Below are positions 3,632 to 22,946 of a stretch of 26,985 nt of DNA, piece after piece. The position numbers and the translations under genes were made by a program. This DNA comes from a virus (Duplodnaviria; Caudoviricetes). Location: positions 1 to 26,985 of IMG/VR virus record IMGVR_UViG_3300027881_000062. One strand, given 5' to 3'. The notes below the pieces were generated by a model. It was not told the origin of the DNA and searched no databases. It worked only from the letters and a program-made list of their open reading frames with translations. The stretch's first letter is position 1. The number at the start of each line of letters is the position of its first letter.

Positions 3632-4084
3632 TTAACCTCCTGACAGCCTGTAATAACCGTTAGCATGTACCTGAACGGTTAACGTATTGGTGTCAGTTGT
3701 CGTCACGTCCAGAGGCGTGTCATCCAGCAGACCATAGCAGAATAAAACGTCTGCCGGGGCCGTGGTGGAATCGTCAAAGATCCAGTACCATCTGGCCACA
3801 ATAGATCCGCCCGATGCCGTAAAGACGGCATTGTCCGAATCGAATTGCCATGTGCCAGCTACTGGTTCCGTTAGCGAAACGGTCGTGAGAGTTTCCCGAG
3901 CGTAGCCATTACCGGATAGTTCATCCGTAATATCGGTTACGTCTTCGTGGTCGGCCTGAATCGGAGTATAGTTACTATCACTCAGGCCCATGATCCACGT
4001 ATCGGTATCAACATCTACCTGGCCGTTCTGCAAGAATTGTTTATAAGAATCATAAACAACTAGGGTCGCAGTGGTTGTTGCCAT
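3632..4084 (-). CDS. Conserved phage structural protein (fibre-associated/minor tail type)
   Basis: Motifs YDSYK..L.NG.VD.DTD, ELSGNGYAR, FDSDNAVFTASGGSIVAR.Y.IFDD match a widespread phage family that I recall preceding fibre-like genes. Confidence 0.7.
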   Translation of the reverse strand: MATTTATLVVYDSYKQFLQNGQVDVDTDTWIMGLSDSNYTPIQADHEDVTDITDELSGNGYARETLTTVSLTEPVAGTWQFDSDNAVFTASGGSIVARWYWIFDDSTTAPADVLFCYGLLDDTPLDVTTTDTNTLTVQVHANGYYRLSGG

Positions 4085-4347
4085 TACAATTTCCTCATTG
4101 GTTTAGTTTGAATTTGGGAGGATCCGGGATCCACAAATGTGGCCCCTTTCCACCCGTTATATGCCCAGTGCCACGCGTCGGCCACTTTATCTTTCATAAT
4201 TGCGAATGGTCCTGAAAGAAAAAGCAAGTCGTCGTGCGCCATCTTTTCGACGATTTCCTTATCGGCGGGCGTGAAAAGTAACGCTATCAAAACATCCTGT
4301 GAATTAAACTGTAGCGTTCGATCTCCTTCTTTAATTTTCACTAACAT
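4084..4347 (-). CDS. Hypothetical protein (87 aa)
   Basis: AGGAGA RBS; stop overlaps the next start (TAATG). Confidence 0.65.
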   Translation of the reverse strand: MLVKIKEGDRTLQFNSQDVLIALLFTPADKEIVEKMAHDDLLFLSGPFAIMKDKVADAWHWAYNGWKGATFVDPGSSQIQTKPMRKL

Positions 4348-4354
4348 AACTTTA

Positions 4355-4384
4355 TCTCCTACTTGGTTGGCACCAAATTAAGGG
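4355..4384 (-). promoter_or_regulatory. RBS-overlapping hairpin element, copy 1 (core TTGGTGCCAACCAA)
   Basis: mRNA CCU-UA-AUUUGGU-GCCA-ACCAAGU-AGGAGA; same core at 19538-19565 and, inverted, at 22918-22942. Confidence 0.55.
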
Positions 4385-4653
4385 GGGGCTTCGACGTTTT
4401 CGCTTGCTCCTTCTCCCTCTCCTGGAGGGCGCGGACCTGGCGGTACGGCAGCTTGTGCCGGTCTAAAGTTAATTCCGAAACGGCCACTCAAAAGCATTCG
4501 TAACAGCCACTTCAAATCAACAATGCCATCAGCATATTTAATAGGTGCTGTCACATTGCCAGACTTGTCCTCTAGGAATTCCATACCTTGAGTCATTCCA
4601 CTTCCGGCTCTTTGCTGTTCGGCCAGTTGTAATTCATCCATCGGTTGGTTCAT
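4378..4653 (-). CDS. Hypothetical protein (91 aa, Pro-rich C-terminus)
   Basis: AGGAGA RBS directly after the upstream stop. Confidence 0.65.
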   Translation of the reverse strand: MNQPMDELQLAEQQRAGSGMTQGMEFLEDKSGNVTAPIKYADGIVDLKWLLRMLLSGRFGINFRPAQAAVPPGPRPPGEGEGASENVEAPP

Positions 4654-4662
4654 TTCTTTCTC

Positions 4663-5031
4663 CTATGTCATACGCCGTAACGTTGTAATTCGGTCTTCCT
4701 GTGTGACCGCTACGTTCGTCAATGCCAGAAACAATTCATGCACCGCTAAGGCGGCGGCCTTTGCGTCGGTTACTTGGCCGACCTCAGTTGCATTTGCTTC
4801 AGTATCGAATACCCCTGGATCTCCAACAGGATCAGATTCACGCCTCTGCCATACCTCAAGAAATAGCTGATCGGCCAGTAGTTGGTCTGTTCCGCCCGCA
4901 AAGGCCCAAAGCTCTATGAGATCCTGATAGATGTTCTCGGATTCAACGACTGCAACCATTGTCTTGTTTGCGACGTTTTGCACCGCCGCTGACACATCCA
5001 GCCATCGTTTTTCACTACTATGTCCTGCCAT
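4663..5031 (-). CDS. Hypothetical helical protein (122 aa)
   Basis: AGGAGA RBS, packed in the operon; no family recognised. Confidence 0.7.
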   Translation of the reverse strand: MAGHSSEKRWLDVSAAVQNVANKTMVAVVESENIYQDLIELWAFAGGTDQLLADQLFLEVWQRRESDPVGDPGVFDTEANATEVGQVTDAKAAALAVHELFLALTNVAVTQEDRITTLRRMT

Positions 5032-5047
5032 TTCGTTCTCCTATAAA

Positions 5048-5188
5048 TCAAAGAAAATAGTTATCCATTACAAGCCAGATAACCACTATAATAACAAGGC
5101 CGAAGATTAAATTCCGCTTTGCCTTGAATGCCGCTTGGATTTTACCCCATGCGATGAAAGCCTCTTTGCCATATTTTGTAGCCATCAT
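5048..5188 (-). CDS. Small single-pass membrane protein (46 aa); not in the ORF track
   Basis: AGGAG at 5194-5198; MMATKYGKEAFIAWGKIQAAFKAKRNLIFGLVIIVVIWLVMDNYFL*; basic N-terminus then a hydrophobic stretch; fills the gap between neighbours. Confidence 0.75.
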   Translation of the reverse strand: MMATKYGKEAFIAWGKIQAAFKAKRNLIFGLVIIVVIWLVMDNYFL

Positions 5189-5203
5189 ATTTACTCCTGT
5201 CAG

Positions 5204-5704
5204 TTAGGGCGGCTCCTCTTCATTAAATGCCGATATATTGAATGTCGCGTCGTCAAGTAAGGTGCCGCCCGAGGCGGCATCATACGCTTCAACAGTAACG
5301 TTGGCATTTTGTTCTGTATCATAGTCGCCTTCAATCATTTCGATCTTCTTCGTGGCCGACATTTGTTGCCGGGTACTGAGCTCATTGGTATCGAGGCTGC
5401 CGGAGTTTACCGTACAGATAAGCCAAACATCAGCAACGTCCCCAACATCCAACCAAGGACCACGGGCGACCGTGTAGTTCCCAACATTAGTACTGCCCCA
5501 CTCACTGCCGCTAGTATTATATTGCACACCAGCCCAGCAAGTGCCAAAGCGGGAATTTTGATTGTTCGTGTTACTTAAGGAAACGCTAAGAGCAGGAATA
5601 ACAGGGCCATAAACTGCCGTGGCACAAACGATGCCGCGCTGGAATTTCGGCCTCCCCCATATACGTTCTGGCAAGTACAAATTCTTTTTTGGAACAATAA
5701 TCAT
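5204..5704 (-). CDS. Hypothetical protein after the tail tip gene (possible fibre-associated protein)
   Basis: Starts 10 nt after the tail tip stop; beta-rich C-terminal half. Confidence 0.65.
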   Translation of the reverse strand: MIIVPKKNLYLPERIWGRPKFQRGIVCATAVYGPVIPALSVSLSNTNNQNSRFGTCWAGVQYNTSGSEWGSTNVGNYTVARGPWLDVGDVADVWLICTVNSGSLDTNELSTRQQMSATKKIEMIEGDYDTEQNANVTVEAYDAASGGTLLDDATFNISAFNEEEPP

Positions 5705-5714
5705 GGCGGTCTTG

Positions 5715-8700
5715 TTACTCCTGTGACAGGCCTACCCCTACCAATTCATATAGGGAATCTGTTCGCTTGACCCAAGTACACCAACCCTTACCTGCCAATA
5801 TCATATTACCAGTATTCCTCAATGTAGCATCTCCTGAAAAGATTTCAAGGTTATTTGAGGCATCCACAAGCACTAAGTTCGAGAGTGTCGCATTAACAAT
5901 CCAACCAACGGCATCGACCGGAATGCCACCGTCATTGGCAAAGGTAATACCACCCGCTATGTTCGTTACTCTAATCCTCTTATGAACAGCTAACTCGGAA
6001 ATGGTGTAAGTAGAACTGCCCGACTTCGCGATTTGCGTCATATCTCCGAAGCCAACGTCCCGGAAATTCTGTGCGTAATCTTTTGCTTGGAAACCAGAAA
6101 TGGAATCGGCGGCATTACTGTCCTTAGTCCTGACTTCTCCTACCCCGTTGTAGTAAAGTTCTACGTAGGAATTGTCGAGGCAATAGACGAACCATTCATC
6201 ATTGGTGTCATTATAGAGGCCAGAACTGGTACTACCATTATCCATGTACGAGTGGCGTGCACCAATAGAGTAGCCATGATAACTGCTGTTAGTACCTTCT
6301 CCACCGGTGACCTGTACTGATCCGAACCCGCCTGTGACAGACGTGAAGTGGCCTATAGTATCCTGGTTGATATAGAGATCCCCATAGACTTGAAGATCAT
6401 CCGTGCCGTGCGGAACCCGCAATGCCCAGGCACCTAAATTGTTCAGCAAGCCAAAAGCACCAGTATCGAAATAAACGTATCCACGCAGAGTGGCTTTATC
6501 ATCTTCATAAAGCTGAATGCCGCCTGTGGTTGCACCACCGGCTAACTTCAGGTAGCCGTCATTATCTATGAACTGAGAAGACAGCTGAATACCAGCATTC
6601 GCATTCAGAAGGCTTGATACAGTAACTTGTCCGGGGAAGGTCACGTTGTTGGCATTGAGTTCCATCCAAGGCTCGATGCCTGTGCCCGCGCCGTTCGGTG
6701 ACGCAAAAGTCGATATACGACGGAACCAGTACTCGTGCCCGTCACCAGACCATAAAGCACCGTCCGTGATGTCGGCGGGATCAACTCCAAAGAATAATGT
6801 CTGTGTGGTTCCGGCTGTTGCTAGATCGTTGCCGATCATCAGGCCTCGATAAGTAGCCGAGTACCCAAATGCTTTCGATGCAAGAGTGTCACGATGGTAG
6901 GATGCAGTACCCATCGACAACGTAACGTCCTCTAACCAAACGCTGGCGGTTTGGTACCCCGTCATGCGATAGTCGGTGCCATCATGGTACTGCGTGAAGT
7001 AGTCGTTGTTGTCGGAATTGTATAAGCGTAACTTAGACGCATTGAGCAACTGCATGGCGCCTATAGTGAGATTGAAGAACGACAATCCGGAGTGGTTAAA
7101 CGTAAAGGTGTTTGAGCTTGAGGTGTAAAACATACCATAGCTCGACCCACCAGTGTCTTCCATATACAGGCCGTGACCACCCTGTATGCTAAGGTGCGTA
7201 GAAGTTTTTGTGTCGTTAGCGTCCTGCCACCATACCGTTGCACCGTCTGCCGCGAAAATAGCAGCAAGTGCTTGATTCGGATTGAATTGATGTGAACTGG
7301 TAGGTGTATGTGCTGTTAAATTTGGATCAACAATCCAACCGTAACCCGGCCCGGTAGTAGCAGGCCAAGCCTGACAGGTTATAGCGAATGTTATATCCGT
7401 TACGCCCGTAACCTGTATGTCGATGTATTTTTGATTCGTTGCATCATAGCCAGAGCGTATCAGACTTATTCCGCTAGTACCTTCATTTGTACCACGCAAA
7501 TGCAATGCTGACGCATTTGCACCCCACGTAGCGGGAACGTATATCTCCATCGGCATCGGAGCGCCACTACCACCCTGCGAACAGATTGTAATTAGCGCAC
7601 CACCGCGGCCGTTGTTCGCATCCTGAGATGCGATTTGCACCCACCCGTCAGTGCTATTTGCAGTGATTGTTCCCGCTGTGGCCTGCCAATGATATCCCCC
7701 TGTAGCAAGTGATCCGGCGGCGAGTGCGCCTGTAGAAAGAATTTTTACGCCTGTTTCTTCTACCCATGCGGAGCCATTCCAGCGCAACGTGGCGTCAGTG
7801 ACTGTACCATCAGCAATGGCTCCTGACACATCCGCAAATGTTCCGTCATCTTTAAGGAATTTGCCAGTGGATGTTGCGGGGGCCGCAACGACACCCGATT
7901 TCTGGGCACCAGTAAATTTGGCTGGTGATCTAGTCCAATCAAACTTGCCTATTATAAGTTCGCCCGCGGTGTAGCTATTTGGTATCTCCAATACCAATGA
8001 ACCGAGGCCACCACTGCCCTGCATCTTGACAGTCTGTTGAACTGTCATTGTTTGCTGCACTTCAATCCAGACACCTGTTGAAGCTGTGGTTAAATCAATT
8101 TCAATGTCAGGTGTGGCGGCTTGCCCAACATATCGAAGGTCCGGATCAATAGTAGAAGTATGGGCTAAGTAAGCTCTTACAGTTCCTGTGCCTGCCAACG
8201 TTGGAGACGCAGAAAGCTTATAGGCAATGGTTACAGTTACTTCGTCTCCTGCTTGTATGTTTGGTGGAGTGGTTAATGGAGTGGCCGTAGTCCCATTACT
8301 CGTATGATAATATGCAAGATGTATATTAGTAAGAAAGACGCCGGTAGTTCCTGCTTGATCCAGGATATTGCTCAAGTCTATTTCTAAAGTGCCACCTGTT
8401 ATAACAAATGGCTCTTCGGATTCAAGATAAGAATCGGTTCCACCTATCTTACCAACATGCCACGTCGAATCTTTATTCTTTAATGTGCCCCAGCCTAAGT
8501 GGGAGACATGGTCGCTTAATGTGAACTCGGGATCATATACAAGCCTGTCGATAAGGGACTCTGGCAAGAACCTCATATAGTTTTGGATAGTAGGCTCGTT
8601 CCCATCCAGTATGTACACGGCAGGCCGGCAGTATTGTACGTTATATCCAGCAGCGCCGCCAGCGAGGGCATCCCCGCCAAGTCTAAGGGTAGGACTGGCA

Positions 8701-11700
8701 GAGTTTGTATTCCAACGAAATTCAAGAACGTTCTGCGCTGATTTGCGCTCGCCAGTTTTTGGCCAGTATGTACCAGTAATACCCCTATGCGCTTGGTTAG
8801 CCACACTCTCCGGATGGACGATACCTACATGCAAGTACCAATCCTCAAACACTGTACCCTGTGGTGCAGTCTGCTGTAGGAAATCTGGATCGAGATCTTC
8901 AGCCCCAGTCACAAGCCTGTCATAGCGGCCATTAGAGCCAACTTCAGGACCTGGGCCGAATCCCCTATTTACACGGCCATCCTCTAGCACTCGGGAGAAA
9001 ACGTAAAATATATAGGACAATTCCTTACTGAATAATGGAAATTCATGACTCCATTCGGATAGAGAATTACCATCACCCACCACACCATCATCCGTGATTT
9101 GCATGATTAAAGGGAACTCGCCGAAGGGCCCAAACTCATCCTGGATCAATGTAGTACGTGCCACGGCACCATCAGTCAATACCCAACCACCCATTGGATC
9201 GGATGGCGAGGCCTGTTCCCAACCTGCAAGGTTGATTAAATTAACCCCTGAGGCATTTGCCATGGCCACCACAGTTTGGGTGATAACAAAGCCATCCCCA
9301 CCAAACGAATAAGAAAACTCAACTGTGAATGAGTTTGTACCAGATCCACTAGGAGTTATTGTAATACGACCAGTATTTAGATCGGTATCTGGATGAGCAG
9401 TTGTGGCACCAGTCATCGTGCCGGTAACAGGATCAAGTGTCACTCTATAACCCTGCCGCGCCTCGTCAGTACCAGCCTTTATAAAGGTTACATCCAAATC
9501 TGTTGTTAATTGTGTAGGTATCCACGTGCTAAAACCTGTTCGCATCCAGGCCAAACCATTTTCAGGTTCTACAAAGCCAACAAGCGCATCCGCTCCAGCA
9601 CTACCATCAGCACCATCACTCACAAGTACATCGGGAGAGGTCCAGGTAACAGTTGTATCCGTACCGGTCTGGCCGACGATAGAAAATGAACCTGTGCTCA
9701 CATAAAGAGGATCGGTACCAGCAGGAGGTTCAACAAACCAATCATCCGGCGAACCGCCGCTTATTGATGGCGGTGTAAGAGTTTGTGTCGTAAAATTGTA
9801 GGATCCGTCATCTGCATCAGGAGTCGAAGGAGCGCTGGATTTACGAAGATAGATGTTTGCTACATGAACGCTGAGACCATCATCTCCATCACCCCCAGGT
9901 GCCCCGTCTGCGCCGTCCGAGGCTAGTATTACTGGTGCCGTCCAATCTACAGTGTTGTCAGTCCCTGTTGTACCATTGATTTCAAATGTGCCCGAAGAAA
10001 CGTACAGGGGATCGGTTCCCGCCGGCACCGTAATAGACCAATCGTCAGCAGAGCCTCCGCCTGTTGATGGCGGTGTAAGTACATTGGTTGAAAAGTTGTA
10101 GGAACCATCGTCATCAATTGGTTCAGTGGGTGCGGAAGATTTTCTTAAGAATACGTTGCCTACAAATACACTATTACCGTCTCCGCCATCCGCACCATCG
10201 CTCACAAGCACATCAGGAGAAGACCAAGTAACAGTACTATCCGTTCCAGTTTGGCCTACAACGGAGAAGGAGCCAGTACTCACATATAAGGGGTCAGTAC
10301 CCGCTGGAGGCTCGACAAACCAATCATCGTCTGAGCCTCCACTAATGTCGGGTGGTGTAAGAGTTTGGGTTGTGAAATTGTATTCGCCATCGTCTACGTC
10401 AGGAGTACTTGGCGCCGAGGACTTGCGAAGATATACATTAGCTACATGAACACTTAGGCCGTCGTCCCCAGGGTCTCCTGTTGCGCCGTCTGCTCCATCC
10501 TGCACCAACAAGTCTGGTGCTGTCCACACAACTGTGGTATCCGTTCCCGTCTGCCCTATAATTGAAAAAGATCCGGTTGAAACATATAGGGGATCGGTAC
10601 CAGCTGGAGGCTCAACCAACCAAGTACTTGGAGGCGTTAACGTATTTGTCGTAAAATTGTATTGTCCGTCATCTACAGACGGGGTGCCTGGTGCCGAGGC
10701 ACTTCTTTTATAAACGTTTGCCGTATATACACTGAGACCGTCATCCCCATCCGTTCCCGGACTACCTACCGCACCATCAGAGGCTAATATAACAGGCGCC
10801 GTCCAGTCCACTGTATTATCAGTTCCTGTCGCTCCCGAAATTTCAAAACTACCAGTCGAAACGTATAAAGGGTCGGAACCGGCGGGTACAGTTATAGACC
10901 AATCGTCAGCAGAGCCTCCACCAATGGACGGCGGAGTTAAGACGTTTGTCGTAAAATTGTAGGAACCGTCATCGTCAATGGGCTCGGTTGGTGCAGAGGA
11001 TTTTCTTAAGAATACGTTGCCTACAAATACACTGTTACCATCCCCACCGTCCGCACCATCCTGTACAAGTAAATCGGGCGCGGTCCACACAACTGTCGTA
11101 TCAGTACCTATTTGACCGACAATCGAAAAAGATCCGGTCGAAACATAAAGAGGATCGGTACCAGCAGGAGGTTCAACAAACCAGGTGCTTGGAGGCGTTA
11201 ATACATTAGTCGTGAAGTTATACTGACCGTCATCTACAGAAGGAGTGCCAGGAGCAGAAGCACTTCGCTTGTAGACGTTTGCTGTATATACACTTAGGCC
11301 GTCGTCTCCGTCTGTTCCCGGTGTTCCTGTTGCTCCGTCCTGCACCAACAAGTTGGGAGAAGTCCACGTAACAGTTGTGTCAGTTCCTGTCTGCCCTACA
11401 ATAGAAAAGGAACCAGTACTTACATATAAAGGATCAGAACCGGCGGGAGGATCCACCGCCCAAGTAGAAGGCGGCGTTAATGTATTTGTACTGAAATTAT
11501 ATTGGCCGTCGTCCACAGAAGGAGTGCTGGGAGGTGTAGCACTTCTTTTATAAACGTTTGCCACATATACACTAAGGCCGTCGTCTCCAACTGCGCCGTC
11601 TGCGCCGTCTTGTACAAGTAGATCGGGCGCGGTCCAGGTAACGGTTGTGTCAGTCCCTGTCTGCCCTATAATTGAGAACGAACCCACACTAACATATAGT

Positions 11701-14219
11701 GGATCCGTACCTGCAGGAGGCTCGACAAACCAACCTGTCGCAGGAGTTAAGACTTGCGAGGTGAAGTTGTATTGCCCATCATCCGCTGAAGGAGTGCCCG
11801 GTGCCGAGGCACTACGTTTATATATGTTTGCTACATGAACGCTGAGACCATCATCACCAGCCGCGCCTGTTGCTCCATCCTGTACGAGCAGGTCAGGTGC
11901 TGTCCAAGTTACTGTCGTATCAGTTCCTGTCTGCCCTACAATTGAGAAGGAACCAGTCGAAACGTATAGCGGGTTTGCACCAGCAGGAGGCTCGACACTC
12001 CAAGTAGAAGGTGGGGTTAAAACATTAGTCGTGAAGTTATACTGACCGTCATCTACAGAAGGAGTACTGGGTGGTGAAGCACTACGTTTATATACGTTTG
12101 CTACATGAACGCTGAGACCATCATCTCCATCAGCACCAGGGGAGCCATCAGCACCATCTTGTACGAGTAAATCGGGAGAGGTCCAGGTAACAGTTGTATC
12201 CGTACCACTGGCTCCTACAATGGAGAAGGATCCTGTGGAGACATATAAGGGATCAGCGCCCGCCGGTGGTGCCTCTGTCCATCCACTGGGTGGTGTTAGA
12301 ACTTGCGTGGTGAAGTTGAATTCACCATCATCCACAGATGGTGTGGAGGGCGGTGTTGCACTACGTTTATATATGTTTGCTACATAGACGCTGAGACCAT
12401 CCCCCAACTCTGTTGCGGTACCAGCCACGCCTGCTGTCGTAACAGGCTCAAAAGTAGAGAAGTTACCTCTATCATCTTCCGATCTAATCCAATAAAAACG
12501 CTCTACCGTATCGTTTACGGCATCCAAATAAATGTTGGCGCGTGTCTCCGCTATCAGCGAGGCCGTACCAACGTCATCAGTGACGGAACGGTGGACCTCA
12601 ATAAGGCTGAACAAACTAGCAGGTGGCCGTAACCATGTAAGCTCTACCACACCGGACTTCCCTTCAGCAGCAAGCGAAGTAGGCGGCGGGACGGTCCTTA
12701 CAGGCGGCGTAATTACTCCGGCAAGAGTTCTTGTTGTATATTCGCCGATCGTTGGATCGGTGTATCTTGTCGAAAAATCTTCCTTAAGTGTGACCTTGTA
12801 ATTACCCTCCGGAGTCGGTTCCCAACCAACACAACGGAAGACTTTATTGGTCCACGAAAACTCAGATAATGTTGCCTGACAAAAAAGGCCTGGAAGTATT
12901 TTGATGCCTTTCTCATTTAGGATTAGTTCAACTACCAGTTGGTTATCAAATTGGTCTAGCTTACGGATGGCAATACGTTGGGCCATGTATTCCGAATTGG
13001 TGAAACGCAGGGACATATCAAAGGGAAGATTGAGACCGTCATCCCTTGTAACGTAAGCCGCGTTAACAGCCGAATTGAATTCTGCAGTCTTGTAATCTCT
13101 GGCCGGATCAACATAGAACCCGGTGACCGTATTAAACCTTTCCGATTGCGGGGCCGTTCCCCTAATGTTTACATCACCGGCCAGCCAAGTTGAGTCTATT
13201 GTTTCAGTGGGCGTGTCATAGACTCCAGCATACATAGTCCATTCGCCGCCGGTCCAAAGTAGCCGACCACTCATGGCCTCCTTTAGCTGGTTCAGCAAGG
13301 TCTCATGGTTCTCGTCCGTAAAGAATGCGCCGTTAACAGTGAACCGTTTTTCAGTTGTCGAAGGCGGGATATCCACTGAGACATCACAAGCGTCTGCGGC
13401 ATCGGCTACGGAAGGCCAATCAATATCATCAGCCGGATCGGCGTCCATGTACACAAACAAATAGTCTGCAATACATAAGGCAGGATTGTCAGAGAACTCC
13501 CACGTAGTGTCGTCCGTATATCGATGGTCGCCGCTGCCACCGTTTGTATCATCCTTCCGAGGATCATAAATACGACGGCCTTCCATTAAGCATGTTATCG
13601 TATTAGGTGGGCCGGTCTTCCAAATGTCGGCCGTCTGTTCAATATATGTTAATGCAAGCCACGCATTGAAAACTCCGTTCAACTTGTGATCAGAAGTTTG
13701 TTCCGTATAGGATGTTATCTTCAGCGCATTAGCCGCTTGGGGATTATACCCTACCTGCCACTGTATCTTTAAGGCGTTCTGGCCGTCGTTTACGAATTCA
13801 GCTTTAGTTACTACTCCAGTACCTGTGCCTCCCAATCCAGGCCCGGTTGGAGGCGTCCAAGTAATTTGTCCGACAGTTATTTCTCTGTCGTCGAGGAAGA
13901 AGGAAATGGCCTCAGCAAGGTGATCCACAAAGGCCACCTCATAATTCAATACCTGGTTGTCGTCCCCAAGCGTATTATTATAAGTGACTGCGCCACTGAC
14001 TTTCGCTGTACCATAAACAATGCGGCGAGGCTCCAAGGCTCCCCTGGCCATTGTTTGCAACCCTGCGAAGGAAGTACGAGGTGCCTTCGGTCCGAAAAGT
14101 TTATTGGTAAGGGTAGATAGGAGTATAACTCCCGCAACCTTTGCAAAGAAAGCGATTACTTTATGGGCTGCGAAAAATGCTTTGATGGCAACGTAGGCAG
14201 CCTTTATTGCGGTTACCAT
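5715..14219 (-). CDS. Tail tip / central fibre protein (lambda J-like host-specificity protein), 2834 aa
   Basis: Hydrophobic N-terminus, RRIVYGTAKVSG, GRRIYDPR...WEFSDNPALCIADYL (tail-tip motifs), FN3-like PPPTSL...LTW...YWIRS, ten repeats, fibre-like C-terminus ending WVKRTDSLYELVGVGL; lies after TMP/Dit/hub/NlpC-like genes. Confidence 0.9.
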   Translation of the reverse strand: MVTAIKAAYVAIKAFFAAHKVIAFFAKVAGVILLSTLTNKLFGPKAPRTSFAGLQTMARGALEPRRIVYGTAKVSGAVTYNNTLGDDNQVLNYEVAFVDHLAEAISFFLDDREITVGQITWTPPTGPGLGGTGTGVVTKAEFVNDGQNALKIQWQVGYNPQAANALKITSYTEQTSDHKLNGVFNAWLALTYIEQTADIWKTGPPNTITCLMEGRRIYDPRKDDTNGGSGDHRYTDDTTWEFSDNPALCIADYLFVYMDADPADDIDWPSVADAADACDVSVDIPPSTTEKRFTVNGAFFTDENHETLLNQLKEAMSGRLLWTGGEWTMYAGVYDTPTETIDSTWLAGDVNIRGTAPQSERFNTVTGFYVDPARDYKTAEFNSAVNAAYVTRDDGLNLPFDMSLRFTNSEYMAQRIAIRKLDQFDNQLVVELILNEKGIKILPGLFCQATLSEFSWTNKVFRCVGWEPTPEGNYKVTLKEDFSTRYTDPTIGEYTTRTLAGVITPPVRTVPPPTSLAAEGKSGVVELTWLRPPASLFSLIEVHRSVTDDVGTASLIAETRANIYLDAVNDTVERFYWIRSEDDRGNFSTFEPVTTAGVAGTATELGDGLSVYVANIYKRSATPPSTPSVDDGEFNFTTQVLTPPSGWTEAPPAGADPLYVSTGSFSIVGASGTDTTVTWTSPDLLVQDGADGSPGADGDDGLSVHVANVYKRSASPPSTPSVDDGQYNFTTNVLTPPSTWSVEPPAGANPLYVSTGSFSIVGQTGTDTTVTWTAPDLLVQDGATGAAGDDGLSVHVANIYKRSASAPGTPSADDGQYNFTSQVLTPATGWFVEPPAGTDPLYVSVGSFSIIGQTGTDTTVTWTAPDLLVQDGADGAVGDDGLSVYVANVYKRSATPPSTPSVDDGQYNFSTNTLTPPSTWAVDPPAGSDPLYVSTGSFSIVGQTGTDTTVTWTSPNLLVQDGATGTPGTDGDDGLSVYTANVYKRSASAPGTPSVDDGQYNFTTNVLTPPSTWFVEPPAGTDPLYVSTGSFSIVGQIGTDTTVVWTAPDLLVQDGADGGDGNSVFVGNVFLRKSSAPTEPIDDDGSYNFTTNVLTPPSIGGGSADDWSITVPAGSDPLYVSTGSFEISGATGTDNTVDWTAPVILASDGAVGSPGTDGDDGLSVYTANVYKRSASAPGTPSVDDGQYNFTTNTLTPPSTWLVEPPAGTDPLYVSTGSFSIIGQTGTDTTVVWTAPDLLVQDGADGATGDPGDDGLSVHVANVYLRKSSAPSTPDVDDGEYNFTTQTLTPPDISGGSDDDWFVEPPAGTDPLYVSTGSFSVVGQTGTDSTVTWSSPDVLVSDGADGGDGNSVFVGNVFLRKSSAPTEPIDDDGSYNFSTNVLTPPSTGGGSADDWSITVPAGTDPLYVSSGTFEINGTTGTDNTVDWTAPVILASDGADGAPGGDGDDGLSVHVANIYLRKSSAPSTPDADDGSYNFTTQTLTPPSISGGSPDDWFVEPPAGTDPLYVSTGSFSIVGQTGTDTTVTWTSPDVLVSDGADGSAGADALVGFVEPENGLAWMRTGFSTWIPTQLTTDLDVTFIKAGTDEARQGYRVTLDPVTGTMTGATTAHPDTDLNTGRITITPSGSGTNSFTVEFSYSFGGDGFVITQTVVAMANASGVNLINLAGWEQASPSDPMGGWVLTDGAVARTTLIQDEFGPFGEFPLIMQITDDGVVGDGNSLSEWSHEFPLFSKELSYIFYVFSRVLEDGRVNRGFGPGPEVGSNGRYDRLVTGAEDLDPDFLQQTAPQGTVFEDWYLHVGIVHPESVANQAHRGITGTYWPKTGERKSAQNVLEFRWNTNSASPTLRLGGDALAGGAAGYNVQYCRPAVYILDGNEPTIQNYMRFLPESLIDRLVYDPEFTLSDHVSHLGWGTLKNKDSTWHVGKIGGTDSYLESEEPFVITGGTLEIDLSNILDQAGTTGVFLTNIHLAYYHTSNGTTATPLTTPPNIQAGDEVTVTIAYKLSASPTLAGTGTVRAYLAHTSTIDPDLRYVGQAATPDIEIDLTTASTGVWIEVQQTMTVQQTVKMQGSGGLGSLVLEIPNSYTAGELIIGKFDWTRSPAKFTGAQKSGVVAAPATSTGKFLKDDGTFADVSGAIADGTVTDATLRWNGSAWVEETGVKILSTGALAAGSLATGGYHWQATAGTITANSTDGWVQIASQDANNGRGGALITICSQGGSGAPMPMEIYVPATWGANASALHLRGTNEGTSGISLIRSGYDATNQKYIDIQVTGVTDITFAITCQAWPATTGPGYGWIVDPNLTAHTPTSSHQFNPNQALAAIFAADGATVWWQDANDTKTSTHLSIQGGHGLYMEDTGGSSYGMFYTSSSNTFTFNHSGLSFFNLTIGAMQLLNASKLRLYNSDNNDYFTQYHDGTDYRMTGYQTASVWLEDVTLSMGTASYHRDTLASKAFGYSATYRGLMIGNDLATAGTTQTLFFGVDPADITDGALWSGDGHEYWFRRISTFASPNGAGTGIEPWMELNANNVTFPGQVTVSSLLNANAGIQLSSQFIDNDGYLKLAGGATTGGIQLYEDDKATLRGYVYFDTGAFGLLNNLGAWALRVPHGTDDLQVYGDLYINQDTIGHFTSVTGGFGSVQVTGGEGTNSSYHGYSIGARHSYMDNGSTSSGLYNDTNDEWFVYCLDNSYVELYYNGVGEVRTKDSNAADSISGFQAKDYAQNFRDVGFGDMTQIAKSGSSTYTISELAVHKRIRVTNIAGGITFANDGGIPVDAVGWIVNATLSNLVLVDASNNLEIFSGDATLRNTGNMILAGKGWCTWVKRTDSLYELVGVGLSQE
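9590..12402 (-). repeat. Ten in-frame tandem ~87-100-aa domain repeats joined by short collagen-like Gly-X-Y linkers (boundaries approximate)
   Basis: Unit DG(L/N)SV..(A/G)N.(Y/F)...DDG.(Y/F)NF....LTP...W...PAG..PLYVS.G.F...GTD.TV.W(T/S).P; linkers such as DGADGSPGADGDDG. Confidence 0.95.
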
Positions 14220-14603
14220 TTAAACTCTCCACCTATAGCCAATATATTCTAGTGGCCAATCCATTATGCTCGCCTTTGTCTTTACAGCTACTCGGTCGCC
14301 TATAACAATCCCAACAAGCCACGTCCCGTCTTCCTGTAAACAGGCCACCACATCATATTCTTCAATGGGGCATTCTTTGGGAAGTGGTGCGCCTAATATA
14401 GCTGTGGTGGCATCGACCAAGTTGCCATACTTTGCTATTGCTTTGGCCGCACCTACTTCATTCGAGTAATCGAACACATCCATTGGATTGTATCCCTTAA
14501 CGTGTTCGAGGACGGCGCCAGCAAATTGGCAGCAATCATAGCCGTAAGAAAACGGACGGCGAGACCATTCTAACAAAAGGGCAGGAAGCGAAGTATTGCT
14601 CAC
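14220..14603 (-). CDS. NlpC/P60-like tail assembly protein (DUF6950 / lambda K-like)
   Basis: PFSYGYDCCQFA motif; position between hub and tip genes; GTG start overlaps the upstream stop. Confidence 0.75.
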   Translation of the reverse strand: MSNTSLPALLLEWSRRPFSYGYDCCQFAGAVLEHVKGYNPMDVFDYSNEVGAAKAIAKYGNLVDATTAILGAPLPKECPIEEYDVVACLQEDGTWLVGIVIGDRVAVKTKASIMDWPLEYIGYRWRV

Positions 14604-15226
14604 GGAATATCCTGTCCTCTGTCAGTGTACCAATCGTCATCTCTATTGGCACCACTGTCTATCGTGGCCGGATCTCTATGACCCCACGTTAATTTGAGAT
14701 CCTTCATTTGTGCTACGAATTGTAGGCCAAGGTCTCCCGAGGATTTCTTTTGTTGGCTTTCGTCTGTGTATCTTGTACCAATCTTCTTGTTGAGGATGGC
14801 CAGAACGTGCTGGACAATAATACTAACAGAGTTATCGGACCCACGAACTCCACTACCATGTTCCACTCGGCCTTTATAGAAATTCCATGGCGTTCCGACA
14901 AGTGTTCCGTCATCATTTCTATAACCAATGTATAGGAAAACTTTGTCACCATAATTGGCCGCGTTCATGGATTCCGTAAAGATATTGGAATCCAATCCGG
15001 TCAAAGTCATGGTTACAGGAGAGGGCACTAAGTTTTCAGTTTCAGAAAGGCCACTGAGACCTCCCAAATTACCTATGCCCAAATAATCATTCGATTCAAA
15101 ATTGATTATTCCGAGGCCGGTATGTGCGTAAACTGGAGTAGTGAAATCTATCCTGGCCAATAACACAGGATGAATATGAGTGCCTTCCGCATGTGCTTCT
15201 GTAGCCGCGGCAAGAGTTCTACTCAT
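14600..15226 (-). CDS. Tail tip hub/minor tail protein (lambda L/DUF2163-like), 208 aa
   Basis: Start re-assigned to ATG 15226 (MSRTLAAA). Motifs YLGIGNLGGLS, MTLTGLD, RYTDESQ...GDLGLQFVAQM...LTWG. Confidence 0.8.
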   Translation of the reverse strand: MSRTLAAATEAHAEGTHIHPVLLARIDFTTPVYAHTGLGIINFESNDYLGIGNLGGLSGLSETENLVPSPVTMTLTGLDSNIFTESMNAANYGDKVFLYIGYRNDDGTLVGTPWNFYKGRVEHGSGVRGSDNSVSIIVQHVLAILNKKIGTRYTDESQQKKSSGDLGLQFVAQMKDLKLTWGHRDPATIDSGANRDDDWYTDRGQDIP

Positions 15227-15821
15227 TTGGAATCCCCATGGCCGCGAAAGATAATGTGCTGACCATATTCTTTGTAGTGTTGAAGGTGAAAGTCCCATCA
15301 CTAAGGACAAGGATTTCTACTGGCGTAATCACGTCAACGGAAGAATCGGTCGCCGGCGCCACGTAAATCCTTGGCGACAGGGATAGAACAGCTTGGCCTG
15401 ATCCATTTGTATCAACGTCACTGTCCACAGAATACATTTTATTGCCGAGCCCTATTCTGTCTCCGGCCTTCGCCCAATCAGTAATGTTATTGGGACAGTT
15501 ATCAATGTTTAAAGTCTTTCCTGTTTGGCTGCCGCCATTAACAAGCGGGCTACCGCCTAACGATCCCCGCTGCACATGACCAAAGTCTTGCATAGTGAAG
15601 CGGTGCTGCATTCCATTCAGCTTGTGCATGAAGGCTAACAGGTCAGCCCTATCATCCCCTTGCAAGATAGACCAAGCCGCTCTTACAAGCCAGCGCTCAC
15701 CTTCTCTGTCTGCTGTCTGTACGTAGTCTCCGAAAGGGCTTCGGAAAACGGCCGCATTGGATTCGCCTATCCAAAACGATAGGTTGGATGGCTGTATATT
15801 AGGAAAAGCATACGTGGTCAT
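15219..15821 (-). CDS. Distal tail protein (Dit-like)
   Basis: Directly after TMP with an ATGA overlap; FRSPF...QT...GERW and LNG...RF motifs. Confidence 0.75.
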   Translation of the reverse strand: MTTYAFPNIQPSNLSFWIGESNAAVFRSPFGDYVQTADREGERWLVRAAWSILQGDDRADLLAFMHKLNGMQHRFTMQDFGHVQRGSLGGSPLVNGGSQTGKTLNIDNCPNNITDWAKAGDRIGLGNKMYSVDSDVDTNGSGQAVLSLSPRIYVAPATDSSVDVITPVEILVLSDGTFTFNTTKNMVSTLSFAAMGIPNE

Positions 15822-18787: not shown

Positions 18788-18793
18788 GCCTAA

Positions 18794-19138
18794 TTACCCT
18801 TTTAGCTTCTTAAGCTTTTCTAGCTTTTCCTTTTCCTCTTCGACTGCGGCCTGCACCTCGTGAACCGTTTGGTCGCAATACATTACCAAGGTCGCAAATC
18901 GCTCAACATCATAAACCGAATAGATCCTAGCAAAGGCCTCAATTTCCGATACAGTTATGTGAGCAAATTGCCTCCTATTCCATAGTGTCCTAAAAGCCGA
19001 GAATGTAAATTCCAAATGTGCAAACAATTCATCTCGCTTTCCTGCTGGTGTCTGGCCAGGGTTCTCCTCCTCTATTGCTTGGAAGAACTCTTGCTGCGCT
19101 TCTTCCCAACGTGTGCCGTACTCGACGGCCTCTCGGAG
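18794..19138 (-). CDS. Tail assembly chaperone -1 frameshift extension (gpGT-like C-terminal part)
   Basis: The -1 frame after the slippery site reads LREAVEYGTRWEEAQQEFFQAIEEENPGQTPAGKRDELFAHLEF... without a stop into the 18794-19027 ORF. Confidence 0.85.
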   Translation of the reverse strand, partial: LREAVEYGTRWEEAQQEFFQAIEEENPGQTPAGKRDELFAHLEFTFSAFRTLWNRRQFAHITVSEIEAFARIYSVYDVERFATLVMYCDQTVHEVQAAVEEEKEKLEKLKKLKG

Positions 19139-19533
19139 TTTTTTTGGTCGTCCTCTAACCTCTCCAGTCTGTAGTTCTCGATCCGCTGGCTTTCCAACAA
19201 TACCTGCTCCTTAAAATCGTTCAATGTTGGATCCAGCATTAACTCCAAGGCCTTCTCCTCCGAGTATTCAATTTCCTTACCGTCTAACCGCAAGCCCTTC
19301 CATCCTTTGATAATGTGCTTGGCCATGCAACGTGACAAAATCTTTGCCGCTGTCGCGTCGCTTATCTTCCCTCGTCCCACGGCCTTTTGATAAGGCTCCG
19401 ATATACGCTCCTGCATCTTCCTAAACGCAGGGTTATTAAACCTGGCAATTCTAATCGTGGTATCTTCGTCAACCACAATTTCCTTGCCTTCCTCTTCTAG
19501 CTGAGGGTCCGTTTTGTATTCTCTCAGGTCCAT
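19072..19533 (-). CDS. Tail assembly chaperone (gpG-like), 153 aa
   Basis: Start re-assigned to ATG 19533 with an AAGGAG RBS (MDLREYKTDPQLEEEG...IRIARFNNPAF...IIKGWKG...IEYSEEKA); between tail tube and TMP. Confidence 0.85.
   Translation of the reverse strand: MDLREYKTDPQLEEEGKEIVVDEDTTIRIARFNNPAFRKMQERISEPYQKAVGRGKISDATAAKILSRCMAKHIIKGWKGLRLDGKEIEYSEEKALELMLDPTLNDFKEQVLLESQRIENYRLERLEDDQKNSERPSSTAHVGKKRSKSSSKQ
19138..19144 (-). other. Programmed -1 ribosomal frameshift heptamer A AAA AAC
   Basis: In-frame CAA AAA AAC fits the X XXY YYZ pattern at the canonical position upstream of TMP. Confidence 0.85.
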
Positions 19534-19537
19534 CTTA

Positions 19538-19565
19538 TTCTCCTTTGGTTGGCACCAATTAAAGG
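19538..19565 (-). promoter_or_regulatory. RBS-overlapping hairpin element, copy 2
   Basis: mRNA CCU-UUAA-UUGGU-GCCA-ACCAA-AGGAGAA fills almost the whole tube-chaperone intergenic gap. Confidence 0.55.
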
Positions 19566-20726
19566 TTATGCGGGGAACTGATCTATTCGAGCCATCACGC
19601 CTTGTGTGGCATGCATCTTGGCTTCCCACTCCAACGAGGCCACAACCTCGTTATCGTTGCCCGAGCCTACCACGTCTCCGTTGGTATATGTAATGGCCGG
19701 GAATGAAACTACCATGCTATTGCCAGCAGGATCCGTAAGCACTACAGCAAGGCTGGAATCAGTCGAGTTGAGATACTTATCAAACAGCACCTCGTCCTCA
19801 AACAACGCAACCAAGTTGCCAGTGCATACAAACCGCCCGAGGCCGATTGCTACTGCATCAGCCTGGCCTACTCCGTCAACCACCCGGAGGTTTGCATCGT
19901 AGTTAACCTCAAGCGTTTGAACGAATATGCCTGTACCTAGCACGGCGCCGCCTTCCAATACCTTACCGACATTGGATGAAGCGTTAAGGATCTCGTTAGT
20001 AGGCGCTGCCGAATATGCTCCACTGCCTACTGTGGTGGCAGCAAGAACGCCCGACTTGCCCATTACCCCAAACGTGCCAGTCACCTTCTGCCTGGACGCA
20101 ATACTCAGCGACAGGGTAGCCATACGGCAGCCTTTAAAGGCAAAGAATTGTGTCGCGTCGTTCATGTTCTTTTCGAGCGTAAAACTCTTCTCCACAATTC
20201 CATTAGTCAACGTGCTGGCGTCAATGCTACGTGATCCACCTTCTGCCTCGTCCTCAAGAATTCCACCGGTCACAATAATCTTCGCGGAGGTGGCCGAAAC
20301 AATTTCAAAATAGCCGTTGTTGGCAGGATCAGTATAGCCCTTCGTATAGATCCATTGTCCAGGTTCCAAAGAACTACCAAAACCCGAACCGCTGTCATTG
20401 AAAGAGTTATCGGATTGAACCGCATCCAACGTGGCTATCGGACCAATGCCAAGTGGCGTGGTAAAGTCGCTGCCAAATATGCCCTCGTAATAAATGTCAT
20501 GGGCGGCATAAGACATTTCAAAATCCCAGCCTCCATCAGCATTTGACCCGACCTCCACAATATCTGAGACCTGCCGATCCGAGCGTACCTCGTCGGACCT
20601 TACCGTTTCTTTACGGTGGCCGAGGTTCTCAGTATTGTATCGAATGGCTGCCAGTGCAGAGGCCGGCGTGGTACCCCACGTGACCTCGGCAATACCAGCC
20701 AGTTGTACTCGTGAACTGTCAGACAT
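19566..20726 (-). CDS. Major tail tube protein (386 aa)
   Basis: EVTWGTTP, RSDEVRSDRQV, SFTLEK, FKGC, YTNGD motifs of siphovirus tube proteins; after the tail terminator; no sheath gene. Confidence 0.9.
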   Translation of the reverse strand: MSDSSRVQLAGIAEVTWGTTPASALAAIRYNTENLGHRKETVRSDEVRSDRQVSDIVEVGSNADGGWDFEMSYAAHDIYYEGIFGSDFTTPLGIGPIATLDAVQSDNSFNDSGSGFGSSLEPGQWIYTKGYTDPANNGYFEIVSATSAKIIVTGGILEDEAEGGSRSIDASTLTNGIVEKSFTLEKNMNDATQFFAFKGCRMATLSLSIASRQKVTGTFGVMGKSGVLAATTVGSGAYSAAPTNEILNASSNVGKVLEGGAVLGTGIFVQTLEVNYDANLRVVDGVGQADAVAIGLGRFVCTGNLVALFEDEVLFDKYLNSTDSSLAVVLTDPAGNSMVVSFPAITYTNGDVVGSGNDNEVVASLEWEAKMHATQGVMARIDQFPA

Positions 20727-20741
20727 TTCATGTCTCCTAAG

Positions 20742-21152
20742 TTAGTACGATCTCTCAAAATCGAAATCGAAAAACACTTTGGCGTTGACCTGCCAAAACC
20801 CATTTACATCATCGCCTACCTCGACGACTTCGGACTCCCTAAACGTAATACTCGAAAACTGCTGGCCTTCAAATATTGCGATCACGGAGTCCGCCATTAC
20901 TCTTGCTGCCTGCGTCCCTTCCTTAGCTTGTACAAAACACTGTGCAACGATCCAACCTGGCCGCCTATACAATATTTTGTTCCCGGAATAGCCAACCTCA
21001 CTAGCACGAGCGTTCCTTATCACCAAACGTATAAAAGGACCGGTAGGCCTCTTTCTTGCATCGTTCTCATATCGCACCGCGACACTTTGATCCGCCCACT
21101 GGGCGTCGAATCTTGTCTCTATGGCCAGGTGTGTCTCAGCATGCGAAGACAT
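20742..21152 (-). CDS. Tail terminator/completion protein (DUF4128-like)
   Basis: YEN, YRRPGWIVAQCFV...GT, FWQVN motifs; canonical position. Confidence 0.8.
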   Translation of the reverse strand: MSSHAETHLAIETRFDAQWADQSVAVRYENDARKRPTGPFIRLVIRNARASEVGYSGNKILYRRPGWIVAQCFVQAKEGTQAARVMADSVIAIFEGQQFSSITFRESEVVEVGDDVNGFWQVNAKVFFDFDFERSY

Positions 21153-21565
21153 TAGAGCACCGCCAACGTGGCAAGGTTATTGATAACGTCTCGCTCCACC
21201 CAACCTGAGGGAGCCTGGTCACTACTGCCTTCATTGAGAAAACCAATGTACGGCAGGCTATTACTTATCCACACCGTGGAGAAGGGTTTTAATCCTACGA
21301 GGGCTGCGGCCGCCTCGCCTTTCTTACTACCTTGTACGCCGCCAGCACTACCACCGGATTTCGTTGTCGAGGCATCTGGAAACCCCACTGAGATATTCCA
21401 GTTATTCATTGCCCGGCCAGTATCGATGGGAGTGTCTGCCACCAAATCTGCAAAGATATCGAAAGCAAGTTTCTTCTGTACAGTAACAACGTCGAGGCCA
21501 AGTCTCTTGGCAATCGAATCGAAGTTCTTGTTCAGCCTCCGCAAGTTTCTAACTTCTATGCTCAT
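21152..21565 (-). CDS. Neck protein, HK97 gp10-like
   Basis: TPIDTGRAMNNWNIS and NSLPYIGFLNEGSSDQAPSGWV motifs. Confidence 0.85.
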   Translation of the reverse strand: MSIEVRNLRRLNKNFDSIAKRLGLDVVTVQKKLAFDIFADLVADTPIDTGRAMNNWNISVGFPDASTTKSGGSAGGVQGSKKGEAAAALVGLKPFSTVWISNSLPYIGFLNEGSSDQAPSGWVERDVINNLATLAVL

Positions 21566-21984
21566 TCGTGGAATACCAATGCGCCGTCAGCACCGCCTCC
21601 GACTCGGCCAACCAAAAACTTATACAAGCCCTCCGCAGGGTCGCGTATAAAGCCTCGGACCAGCCAGGTATCATCATCCTTCACTATTGTGTCGCCAGTG
21701 GTTGGGCTTATTGTGACGTCTGTTCCCGGCACAAGCACCAACTGGTCTCCTGGCAGAGCTACCTCTACGAGTTCGGTAGGCATGCGTCTGTCGGCCTTAT
21801 TAAAAGGCAGAAACACTGCTCTAACTGAGAGCATGACAGTATCCGAGTCCGGCGTAACCACGCCCGTCGTCGGATCATAGTCAGGCTCCTGTCCCTCGTG
21901 TGTGTAGTCCACGGTCTCCTTAAGATCTCCGATCGCGTCGAAGGCCGTTCCAACAAGTGACTGGATGGTAGCTTGGAGACCCAT
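21562..21984 (-). CDS. Head closure/stopper protein
   Basis: YDPTTG, GD..VLVP, P.TGD.I...W.V pattern; between adaptor and neck genes. Confidence 0.75.
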   Translation of the reverse strand: MGLQATIQSLVGTAFDAIGDLKETVDYTHEGQEPDYDPTTGVVTPDSDTVMLSVRAVFLPFNKADRRMPTELVEVALPGDQLVLVPGTDVTISPTTGDTIVKDDDTWLVRGFIRDPAEGLYKFLVGRVGGGADGALVFHE

Positions 21985-21985
21985 A

Positions 21986-22510
21986 TTAACTCCTCAGCAA
22001 CGGCACCGCCGCTACCTGGCCGCCAGTTGCGGCCACGGACTTGAGCCTACCCAAGTGTGAAATCATTTGATAAACTTCATCGGATATTGTTTCGAGCCGA
22101 TCAAGTTTATCGAATGTCAACTCAATTACATCTACCTTCAATTTACTGAGGCCTTCCGTTCCTGTCTCAATGGAGCGGTCTCCAATAATAAGGAGACGGG
22201 CTTGCTCTGACACTGCTTCAATCAAACTGGTTGGCAATTCAGCGGAGTCTATAAGCTCTCCGTCTCTATCCAAAGCACCAAACCTTGGCCAGCGTAACGC
22301 TTGCTCTATGGTGTACTTGCCGCCCTGCCAGTCAAAATGGTTATCCAGCAGACGCGTTGCCCATACCAAAGCGGCGTCCTTCTCAGCATCAGTCGCGCCG
22401 GTCCAATCAGTAACAAATAGCCTGGCCTCGTGATACGAGTCCCCTTGCGCTCTTGTTGTATAGCTGTTGGAGGCCGCGCCGCCGATAGTTGCGTCTAATG
22501 TCAGAGCCAT
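21986..22510 (-). CDS. Head-tail adaptor (family often annotated DnaT-like ssDNA-binding)
   Basis: SNSY.T, ALVWATRLLD, QALRWPR, LKVDVIEL motifs. Confidence 0.85.
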   Translation of the reverse strand: MALTLDATIGGAASNSYTTRAQGDSYHEARLFVTDWTGATDAEKDAALVWATRLLDNHFDWQGGKYTIEQALRWPRFGALDRDGELIDSAELPTSLIEAVSEQARLLIIGDRSIETGTEGLSKLKVDVIELTFDKLDRLETISDEVYQMISHLGRLKSVAATGGQVAAVPLLRS

Positions 22511-22537
22511 GCCCGTTCCTCAATTACTTTGTGATAC

Positions 22538-22837
22538 CTACTCTTCCTCTTCCTCCGCTGCCGCTTTGGGGGCGGCCTTCGCAGCCGGTGGCGGAACCTT
22601 TGCCTTCTTTTTACGAGTTGGAAGCTTGTCCGTCTCTGCCTTTTTGTGGACTTTGGGATCGAACTCGGCCTCAGCGACTTTGTAAAAAAGATCCGCTCCG
22701 TTAGTGCCGGCCCCTTTGTTAACACAAAGAACTTCTGGCGTTGGTTTAACTCCGCGCAAAACAAGGCCGCGTAACGGGGTTGGTTGGTTGGTGTCGAGGT
22801 TCTTCAATTGTGAAGTAGTGTTGTCGTCTTCTGCCAT
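22538..22837 (-). CDS. Hypothetical protein after the capsid gene (99 aa; low-complexity K/A/P tail ending EEEEE)
   Basis: AAGGA RBS; EAEFDPKVHK motif of small post-capsid proteins. Confidence 0.7.
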   Translation of the reverse strand: MAEDDNTTSQLKNLDTNQPTPLRGLVLRGVKPTPEVLCVNKGAGTNGADLFYKVAEAEFDPKVHKKAETDKLPTRKKKAKVPPPAAKAAPKAAAEEEEE

Positions 22838-22865
22838 TTTCCTTACTCCTTCTCTGTTGCGTTAT

Positions 22866-22912
22866 AAAAAACAGGGCAAGGCCAGCGCCTAAAATAGACG
22901 AGGACCTTGCCC
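22866..22912 (-). terminator. Probable intrinsic terminator after the capsid gene
   Basis: Minus strand GGGCAAGG-UC..CGUCUA-UUU-UAGGCG..GG-CCUUGCCC followed by UGUUUUUU. Confidence 0.75.
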
Positions 22913-22917
22913 AAACT

Positions 22918-22942
22918 CCTTTAGTGGTGCCAACCAGGAGAA
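22918..22942. repeat. Inverted copy (copy 3) of the TGGTGCCAACCA element, in the capsid 3' UTR
   Basis: + strand CCTTTAGTGGTGCCAACCAGGAGAA versus - strand CCTTTAATTGGTGCCAACCAAAGGAGAA at 19565-19538. Confidence 0.75.
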
Positions 22943-22946
22943 ATCT

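Follow-up and report, generated by a model that had tools for sequence, protein, structure and literature searches.

The major capsid message of a siphophage carries, close behind its stop codon, a conserved hairpin complementary to the ribosome binding regions of two other genes of the same genome. The stretch analysed (the window, 26,985 nucleotides) is an entire 27-kb viral record, IMG/VR IMGVR_UViG_3300027881_000062 (Duplodnaviria; Caudoviricetes), carrying a minus-strand siphophage late operon. The hairpin is located in the 3' untranslated region (UTR) of the capsid gene. Its complements, called sense sites below, are found ahead of the tail assembly chaperone gene and of a gene for an 87-amino-acid (aa) protein. 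The capsid UTR and its sense sites form a real element, conserved at the level of a clade. We propose that the end of the capsid transcript represses translation of both genes as an antisense RNA, a reading predicted from the sequence to which we give a probability of roughly 0.55. That the RNAs would pair, with either sign of effect, appears quite likely. The features concerned are the following.

22947-24095, minus strand: major capsid protein gene (phrog_283, E 7e-75; PF11651), with its stop a few bases ahead of the anti-Shine-Dalgarno (anti-SD) arm.
22916-22943, minus strand: hairpin 1 of the capsid 3' UTR, the predicted antisense element, with a U-rich 5' tail and anti-SD arm, the seed and a closing AGGAG arm (from sequence, folds and relatives).
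22866-22912, minus strand: intrinsic terminator-like hairpin and U tract directly after hairpin 1 (fold z -3.4 for 22860-22960).
19566-20726, minus strand: tail tube gene (PF18906, E 1e-46), upstream of the copy 2 hairpin.
19540-19565, minus strand: target hairpin with copy 2 of a repeated 12-mer, between the tube stop and the chaperone SD (from sequence, folds and relatives).
19072-19533, minus strand: tail assembly chaperone gene (phrog_313, E 2e-27), start at 19533; predicted target.
4356-4383, minus strand: target hairpin with copy 1, which overlaps the stop codon of a 91-aa gene and spans the SD of the 87-aa gene (from sequence, folds and relatives).
4084-4347, minus strand: 87-aa gene (71 unnamed homologues), heading a conserved gene block after the central tail fibre; predicted second target.

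An earlier note on this DNA had described a 12-mer lying in three intergenic positions, the third inverted. Exact positions and strands confirm this: 4364-4375 (minus strand, copy 1), 19546-19557 (minus, copy 2) and 22925-22936 (plus, copy 3). They are the only TGGT-N4-ACCA dyads of the window and have an identical spacer. Copies 1 and 2 are on the mRNA strand, after a stop codon and ahead of an AGGAG SD. Copy 3 is reversed and follows the capsid stop; it sits between an anti-SD arm and an AGGAG arm that has no gene behind it, before the terminator-like hairpin. The seed of the UTR includes UUGGCA. Similarity beyond the core into the flanks and the anti-SD of the capsid UTR, both also reported earlier, are seen in the sequence, and complementarity between UTR and targets extends over about 25-30 nucleotides (nt). 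A triple 12-mer is not rare by itself: any 12-mer present three times occurred in 14 of 100 order-3 Markov simulations, and the tail-fibre repeats contain many such triples. A wholly intergenic 12-mer is possible at 620 of 26,974 positions (2.3%), and this is the only 12-mer family of the window with at least two intergenic copies.

Conservation of the UTR hairpin was examined with capsid homologues, using the best 80 of 99 loci. Among these, four capsid loci at 77-87% identity carry the element, and two metagenome contigs contribute two further UTR copies. L024, L025 and L137 correspond to one phage, leaving five distinct relatives. A 31-nt stretch of the hairpin is identical in all five (L023, L024/L025, L026, L135 and L138). 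At fourfold-degenerate sites of the capsid gene, three compared relatives agree with each other at 48-57% and with the window at 31-34%. The adjacent terminator keeps its stem with a changed sequence. In six clade members, the anti-SD arm begins 4-6 nt past the capsid stop. Among the 76 capsid loci at 62% identity or less, the scaffold was found in L086 only (capsid 49%, tube 30%), with a model that was built with L086 included. There (L086 1767-1835), the anti-SD arm, the first seed bases and the closing arm are kept and the seed is different. The anti-SD arm and U tail are the part retained even in L086, and the opposite strand has no start codon to account for that.

The sense sites are conserved in their positions. 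At the tube-chaperone junction, a site is present in the window and in all seven distinct relatives with a tube identity of 60-95% and available junction sequence. It is found in none of the 20 listed junctions of tube homologues at 40% identity or less, several of which show, by eye, a terminator-like hairpin instead. Genes for 81-87-aa homologues are preceded by a site in the three records that have the gene, and in L003 and G001 this holds although the upstream gene differs. G001, a complete 71-kb relative whose capsid fourfold sites are 31% identical to those of the window, has all three copies in the same layout and orientation. L135 has the UTR and the chaperone site, and L003 has both sense sites. 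The expectation that the motif would be kept with a fixed orientation in relatives was therefore borne out.

We then considered the predicted folds. All 12 sense sites are predicted to form weak two-tier hairpins, some of them very weak, that carry the seed at their top. Of the 11 SD-bearing sites, eight have a partly masked SD (probability of being unpaired at most 0.35) and three a mostly open one (0.56-0.74), and in the predicted dimers the SD is fully paired at all 11. The stem-loops said earlier to hide the SD are indeed present, but copies 1 and 2 mask it in part only (0.33-0.35, where 14 other SDs of the window have a median of 0.57). The capsid UTR hairpin of the window is weak as well. 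It forms when folding begins at the stop codon but is missing from the lowest-energy fold of three fragments, the longest of which forms the outer anti-SD stem only.

Duplex prediction between the UTR and its targets, proposed earlier as a check, places them at the top among start regions of the window. In a scan of both strands, the sense copies of the window rank first (-36.9 and -33.0, next -27.5; 5,390 windows), and so do the three sense copies of G001 (-39.0, -35.2 and -33.5, next -33.2; 14,782 windows). With folding costs included, the window targets rank first and second of 22 SD-bearing starts (-16.7 and -16.5 kcal/mol, next -10.6), and the G001 targets first and third of 142 (-25.6 and -18.9 kcal/mol). 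By the longest perfect match alone, the window reaches 12 nt (shuffled mean 8.7, maximum 12 of 30). At five of six sites with a known partner, the site's own UTR is predicted to outbind the UTR of the other clade. A partial sense core is also seen inside a tail gene (14643-14654), about 45 nt before the start of a 127-aa gene that ranks fourth of the 22 starts (-9.3).

The pattern of substitutions points in the same direction. In the 10-nt core, the 12 sense sites show eight differences that represent four distinct changes, either C>T (seven) or A>G (one). All eight are compatible with G.U pairing to the UTR RNA. Two of them are in the target loop, with no local pair to explain them; only these two speak specifically for intermolecular pairing, because the other six also preserve the target stem. 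We regard this wobble pattern as moderate support for pairing between the two RNAs. Upstream of the core, the UTR of the window has an A opposite a T of the target, and G001-type UTRs have a G opposite a C. One compensatory change of the kind that had been asked for between copy 3 and copies 1 and 2 is therefore seen in relatives, but it is a single event that concerted change of the repeats could mimic.

The predicted mechanism would run as follows. The terminator would give abundant capsid transcripts ending there, either at the end of intact mRNAs or as a small RNA (sRNA) cleaved from them. The seed loop would contact the GCCA-type loop of the target, and pairing would extend along the weak bulged stems, so that finally the SD and the spacer are covered by the anti-SD arm and the U-rich tail. 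Pairing might occur in trans, or in cis on read-through transcripts. Output of the chaperone and of the 87-aa protein would drop as capsid RNA accumulates, doing the job apparently done by the terminator-like hairpin after the tube gene in several distant relatives. A seed match that has no SD, in a 3' UTR of the replication module of the complete relative, may sequester the antisense molecules made first and so postpone the effect. Repression is preferred as the sign because the anti-SD arm is best conserved, and a closing stem would not need that particular sequence. Of the regulation suggested earlier, the pairing is supported by the layout, the wobble-only differences, the binding rank and one matched change; action in trans, an sRNA, the sign and an effect on the head:tail balance remain predictions.

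Several observations weigh against antisense repression. Only four distinct core changes exist, and for six of the eight wobble differences (those at core positions 9 and 10) the target's own hairpin is just as good an explanation. The compensatory change happened once, on one branch, and recombination keeping the repeat copies alike would also change them together. The longest perfect match in G001 is 9 nt, against a shuffled mean of 8.9, which is chance level. Rank 2 among the starts of G001 is a 207-aa gene that has no seed and is matched through the anti-SD half (-19.2). The fourth site of G001, described below, is found in a single genome, and its -33.5 barely passes the next background value of -33.2. 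The L086 fragment (6 kb, 8% complete) shows no match, either at the chaperone site or in the rest of it. According to PMC10798244, kissing hairpins tend to go no further than about 6 base pairs (bp), and folding programs take no account of steric limits. The ten sequencing runs with the stretch are all contigs, and the one run recorded as RNA has no coverage of the UTR. Six runs were examined as contigs; in the two that cover the UTR hairpin, no change is listed.

The same pairing could have the opposite sign, which we consider unlikely. A ribosome stopping at the upstream gene would open the target hairpin, the capsid UTR loop would pair with the seed, and the SD would be held open, activating the chaperone as in IncI-alpha repZ. 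In a variant, ribosomes terminating at the capsid stop would strip the anti-SD arm and be handed to the tethered start; the short distance between that stop and the arm in six clade members fits this variant, as the partial masking of eight of 11 targets fits activation in general. In its favour, the target anatomy matches that of repZ, where a hairpin right after the upstream stop contains the SD and an upstream loop of the UUGGC type pairs with a short seed immediately 5' of the SD (PMC4705826), and kissing complexes often stall (PMC4705826, PMC10798244). On the other hand, the most conserved part, the anti-SD arm with its U tail, is in register with SD and spacer, so that extended pairing covers the SD. 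Three of the 11 targets already have a mostly open SD. Finally, UTR and targets are 3.4 and 18.5 kb apart and separated by a terminator; the corresponding distance in the plasmid is about 100 nt.

Alternatively, the sense hairpins might be local translation dampers or protein-binding RNAs, and the UTR hairpin an inverted duplicate with its own role, in 3' end stability or in pausing before the terminator, so that the complementarity would be a recombination relic. The 4-bp top stem of the targets is indeed conserved (29 of 32 cells paired across sites), the 82-aa site of G001 has a C-G pair where other sites have T-A, and L086 has a UTR scaffold with no visible target. Yet a stabilising hairpin needs no set sequence, whereas 31 nt are invariant beside a freely changing terminator stem, and a protein that binds RNA would distinguish a loop from its complement. 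We find this explanation improbable.

A DNA site for a phage or host protein (operator, roadblock or partition-type), active in either orientation, seems equally hard to defend. No variation is seen in the first five nt of the core at any of the 12 sense sites or in any clade UTR, and copies are located at gene junctions and before terminators. G001 encodes ParB-like and small helix-turn-helix (HTH) proteins, and repressor stoperator sites provide a phage precedent (PMC9283540). The earlier note had offered an orientation-independent operator TGGT-N4-ACCA as its alternative. This is weakened since the arms are not conserved and the orientation is fixed by position rather than random: the perfect DNA dyad is broken in five of six distinct clade UTRs and at six of the 12 sense sites, while 10 of these 12 have the spacer intact, the reverse of what is expected for a dimer operator. 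In addition, substitutions are one-directional, the core-to-flank spacing varies by 0-4 nt, and a DNA site leaves the conserved anti-SD stem and the changed-seed scaffold of L086 unexplained.

Two further readings are highly improbable, namely that the copies are inverted repeats through which the 3.4-kb connector-tube block is inverted, or that they mimic or bind the ends of host 16S rRNA or tRNAs. Copies 2 and 3 do form inverted repeats around the block, but its orientation is the same in the three records having both copies (window, G001 and L135), four runs show no strand-changing joint (in contigs, which drop rare forms), none of the 84 open reading frames (ORFs) scanned in G001 matches an integrase or invertase, and no tRNA is found in G001 or G002. 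The seed may partly resemble the CCA ends of tRNAs and the 3' end of 16S rRNA.

Returning to repression by the capsid UTR, G001 adds a further element. Exact core matches in its 71 kb number five, of which four are intergenic and one is inside a gene. The fourth sense match, at 70,537 (minus strand; L194), lies ahead of a terminator-like hairpin in the 3' UTR of a gene that encodes an acidic protein and is located upstream of folE. It has no SD and shows a 19-nt seed match, which makes it a candidate sponge for the capsid UTR. The start of the acidic gene (L195 443-461) has a short match to the anti-SD half with weak predicted binding (-11.0), which we mention as a lead only. A search with the gene of the fourth site gave no new viral loci. 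From these elements, a more elaborate scheme can be drawn in which the end of the capsid message would be an RNA timer, taken up first by the decoy in the replication-module 3' UTR and then, when capsid RNA is in excess over the decoy, acting as a plasmid-type kissing-loop switch on the chaperone and 87-aa genes, perhaps also on the ribosome binding site (RBS) of the decoy gene itself. We hold this scheme to be doubtful. If true, pairing between mRNAs would be all that a lytic phage needs to order its replication and its output of heads and tails, and the seed of the scaffold could be exchanged to reach other targets, as L086 would illustrate.

The surroundings of the fourth site are described here for themselves. 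The ends of the G001 record fall within the acidic repeat of the acidic gene, which heads a replication and base-modification block. L195-L198 of G001 contain genes for FolE, QueC, PTPS/QueD-like, radical SAM and queuine-tRNA-ribosyltransferase-like proteins, a set that suggests 7-deazaguanine DNA modification. G001 also encodes PolA fused to a UDG domain, RecA, DnaB and ArdC, besides the ParB-like and HTH proteins.

The minus-strand gene order of the operon is minor head, scaffold, major capsid, connectors, tail tube, tail assembly chaperone, tape measure, distal tail, central fibre and a block of unknown genes. The capsid and tail chaperone identities given earlier hold, with the family matches listed above. 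The 3' end of the chaperone gene (19072-19120) has a run of A followed by C, and a 77-aa ORF (18794-19027) of the same PHROG follows; this looks like the usual G/GT frameshift arrangement. The 87-aa protein has no family in Pfam or PHROG. Its model has a predicted local distance difference test (pLDDT) score of 87, and fold searches gave no match, which does not establish a new fold. An atlas search returned only unnamed clusters (0.79), and a homologue search no new viral loci. The central tail fibre (5715-14219; 2,834 aa) has long internal DNA repeats at about 9,600-12,400, and is twice as long as the fibres of L003 and G001. A head-region protein (25643-26962) has a weak zinc-peptidase-type match (PF07737, E 3e-7), shared by its G001 homologue. 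A 483-aa gene of unknown function (1363-2814) contains short internal repeats at multiples of 72 nt (1672-2016). The nearest cultured phages reach 55% capsid identity (Vibrio SSP002/MAR10-like). A GTDB scan with the tube profile gave a single partial match at 41%, carrying no host information.

Searches for other regulatory signals around the capsid end and for further cases gave little. The terminator at 22866-22912 received no call in a simple terminator scan, and no sigma-70-like promoter is listed near the capsid end. A sigma-54 promoter was considered and dropped, with no -12 box visible by eye after TGGCAC. Rfam gave two matches at E 8-9 for 22700-23100, far under thresholds, hence no family, and comparison of the capsid UTR with 50,697 cultured-phage records gave chance matches only. 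In viral contigs, a core plus SD pattern had 19 matches, two of them in the clade (one contig, G002). An anti-SD plus core pattern had 14: four at capsid ends, one at a known sense site and nine, on inspection, away from a recognised capsid end. A scaffold pattern had 28, five at capsid ends. Two of five look-alike records were dropped as chance, L006 (by an insertion-sequence gene) and L177 (inside a terminase-like gene). UTR-to-downstream complementarity involving other sequences, inspected in 52 loci with at least 3.5 kb downstream, gave no convincing case beyond the clade, with two GC-rich matches of 12-13 nt.

Head/tail protein ratio and timing in the late operons of double-stranded DNA (dsDNA) phages are usually ascribed to terminators, RBS strength and frameshifting. 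If the capsid message ends in a conserved antisense element directed at genes of tail assembly, morphogenesis would gain a layer of RNA control. Natural loop variants offer ready-made controls for the predicted pairing, and phage genomes could be scanned for complementarity between UTRs and RBSs. The phage antisense RNAs covered by the reviews consulted act on lysis-lysogeny, lysis timing or host genes. In the literature searched (mostly open-access main texts), we found no capsid UTR RNA acting on tail genes. A conserved sRNA is described upstream of a tail gene in a jumbo phage, with target unknown (PMC11512511).

The closest likeness in shape is to plasmid loop-loop systems. Complementary hairpin loops on bulged stems, as in CopA/Inc-type RNAs, are predicted for the UTR and the 12 sense sites; the hairpins are mirror images, and an SD-masking hairpin directly follows the upstream stop. 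The seed UUGGCA shares five of six bases with the UUGGCG loop of the Inc target of ColIb-P9 repZ (PMC4705826), and the central GGC recalls the contact described for R1 CopA/CopT (PMC10798244). A UUGG that would fit the YUNR U-turn motif (as defined in PMC4485353) is present, but its first U is paired in the predicted folds. CopA and Inc, however, are transcribed from the opposite strand, are fully complementary to one target and control a replication initiator. Here, the antisense would be part of an mRNA end on the same strand, 3.4 and 18.5 kb away, imperfectly complementary to at least two sites, and would concern virion genes, the tail chaperone and an unknown gene.

Among phage RNAs, P1/P7 c4 (with P22 sar, lambda OOP and aQ) resembles the predicted system in its looped sequences and its block of an mRNA RBS (PMC12197685). 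Those RNAs control antirepressor, cII or Q in lysis-lysogeny, whereas here the source would be a capsid 3' UTR and the targets would be in the tail region. In MS2, the Min Jou interaction also pairs coat-gene RNA at a distance with the RBS region of another gene and ties its translation to that of the coat (PMC11339067). It involves about 7 bp over 300 nt in the coding region of an RNA phage, against a UTR hairpin with several targets at 3-18 kb in a dsDNA phage. Stoperator-type sites occur in many copies across a genome (PMC9283540), to be compared with the five exact core matches of G001.

Finally, the capsid UTR has features of 3' UTR-derived sRNAs, namely a conserved seed between the stop codon and an intrinsic terminator, complementary to initiation regions elsewhere. 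CisR, which acts on the CTX-phi cep mRNA, has its seed in the same position (PMC13250501). Its source is the prtV UTR and its target a phage mRNA, whereas here phage RNA would act on phage RNA, with 25-30 nt of complementarity. As judged from its predicted pairing, the capsid UTR system behaves like plasmid loop-loop control and P1 c4 and is built like a 3' UTR-derived sRNA, outside the class of cis-encoded antisense RNAs and outside Rfam families.

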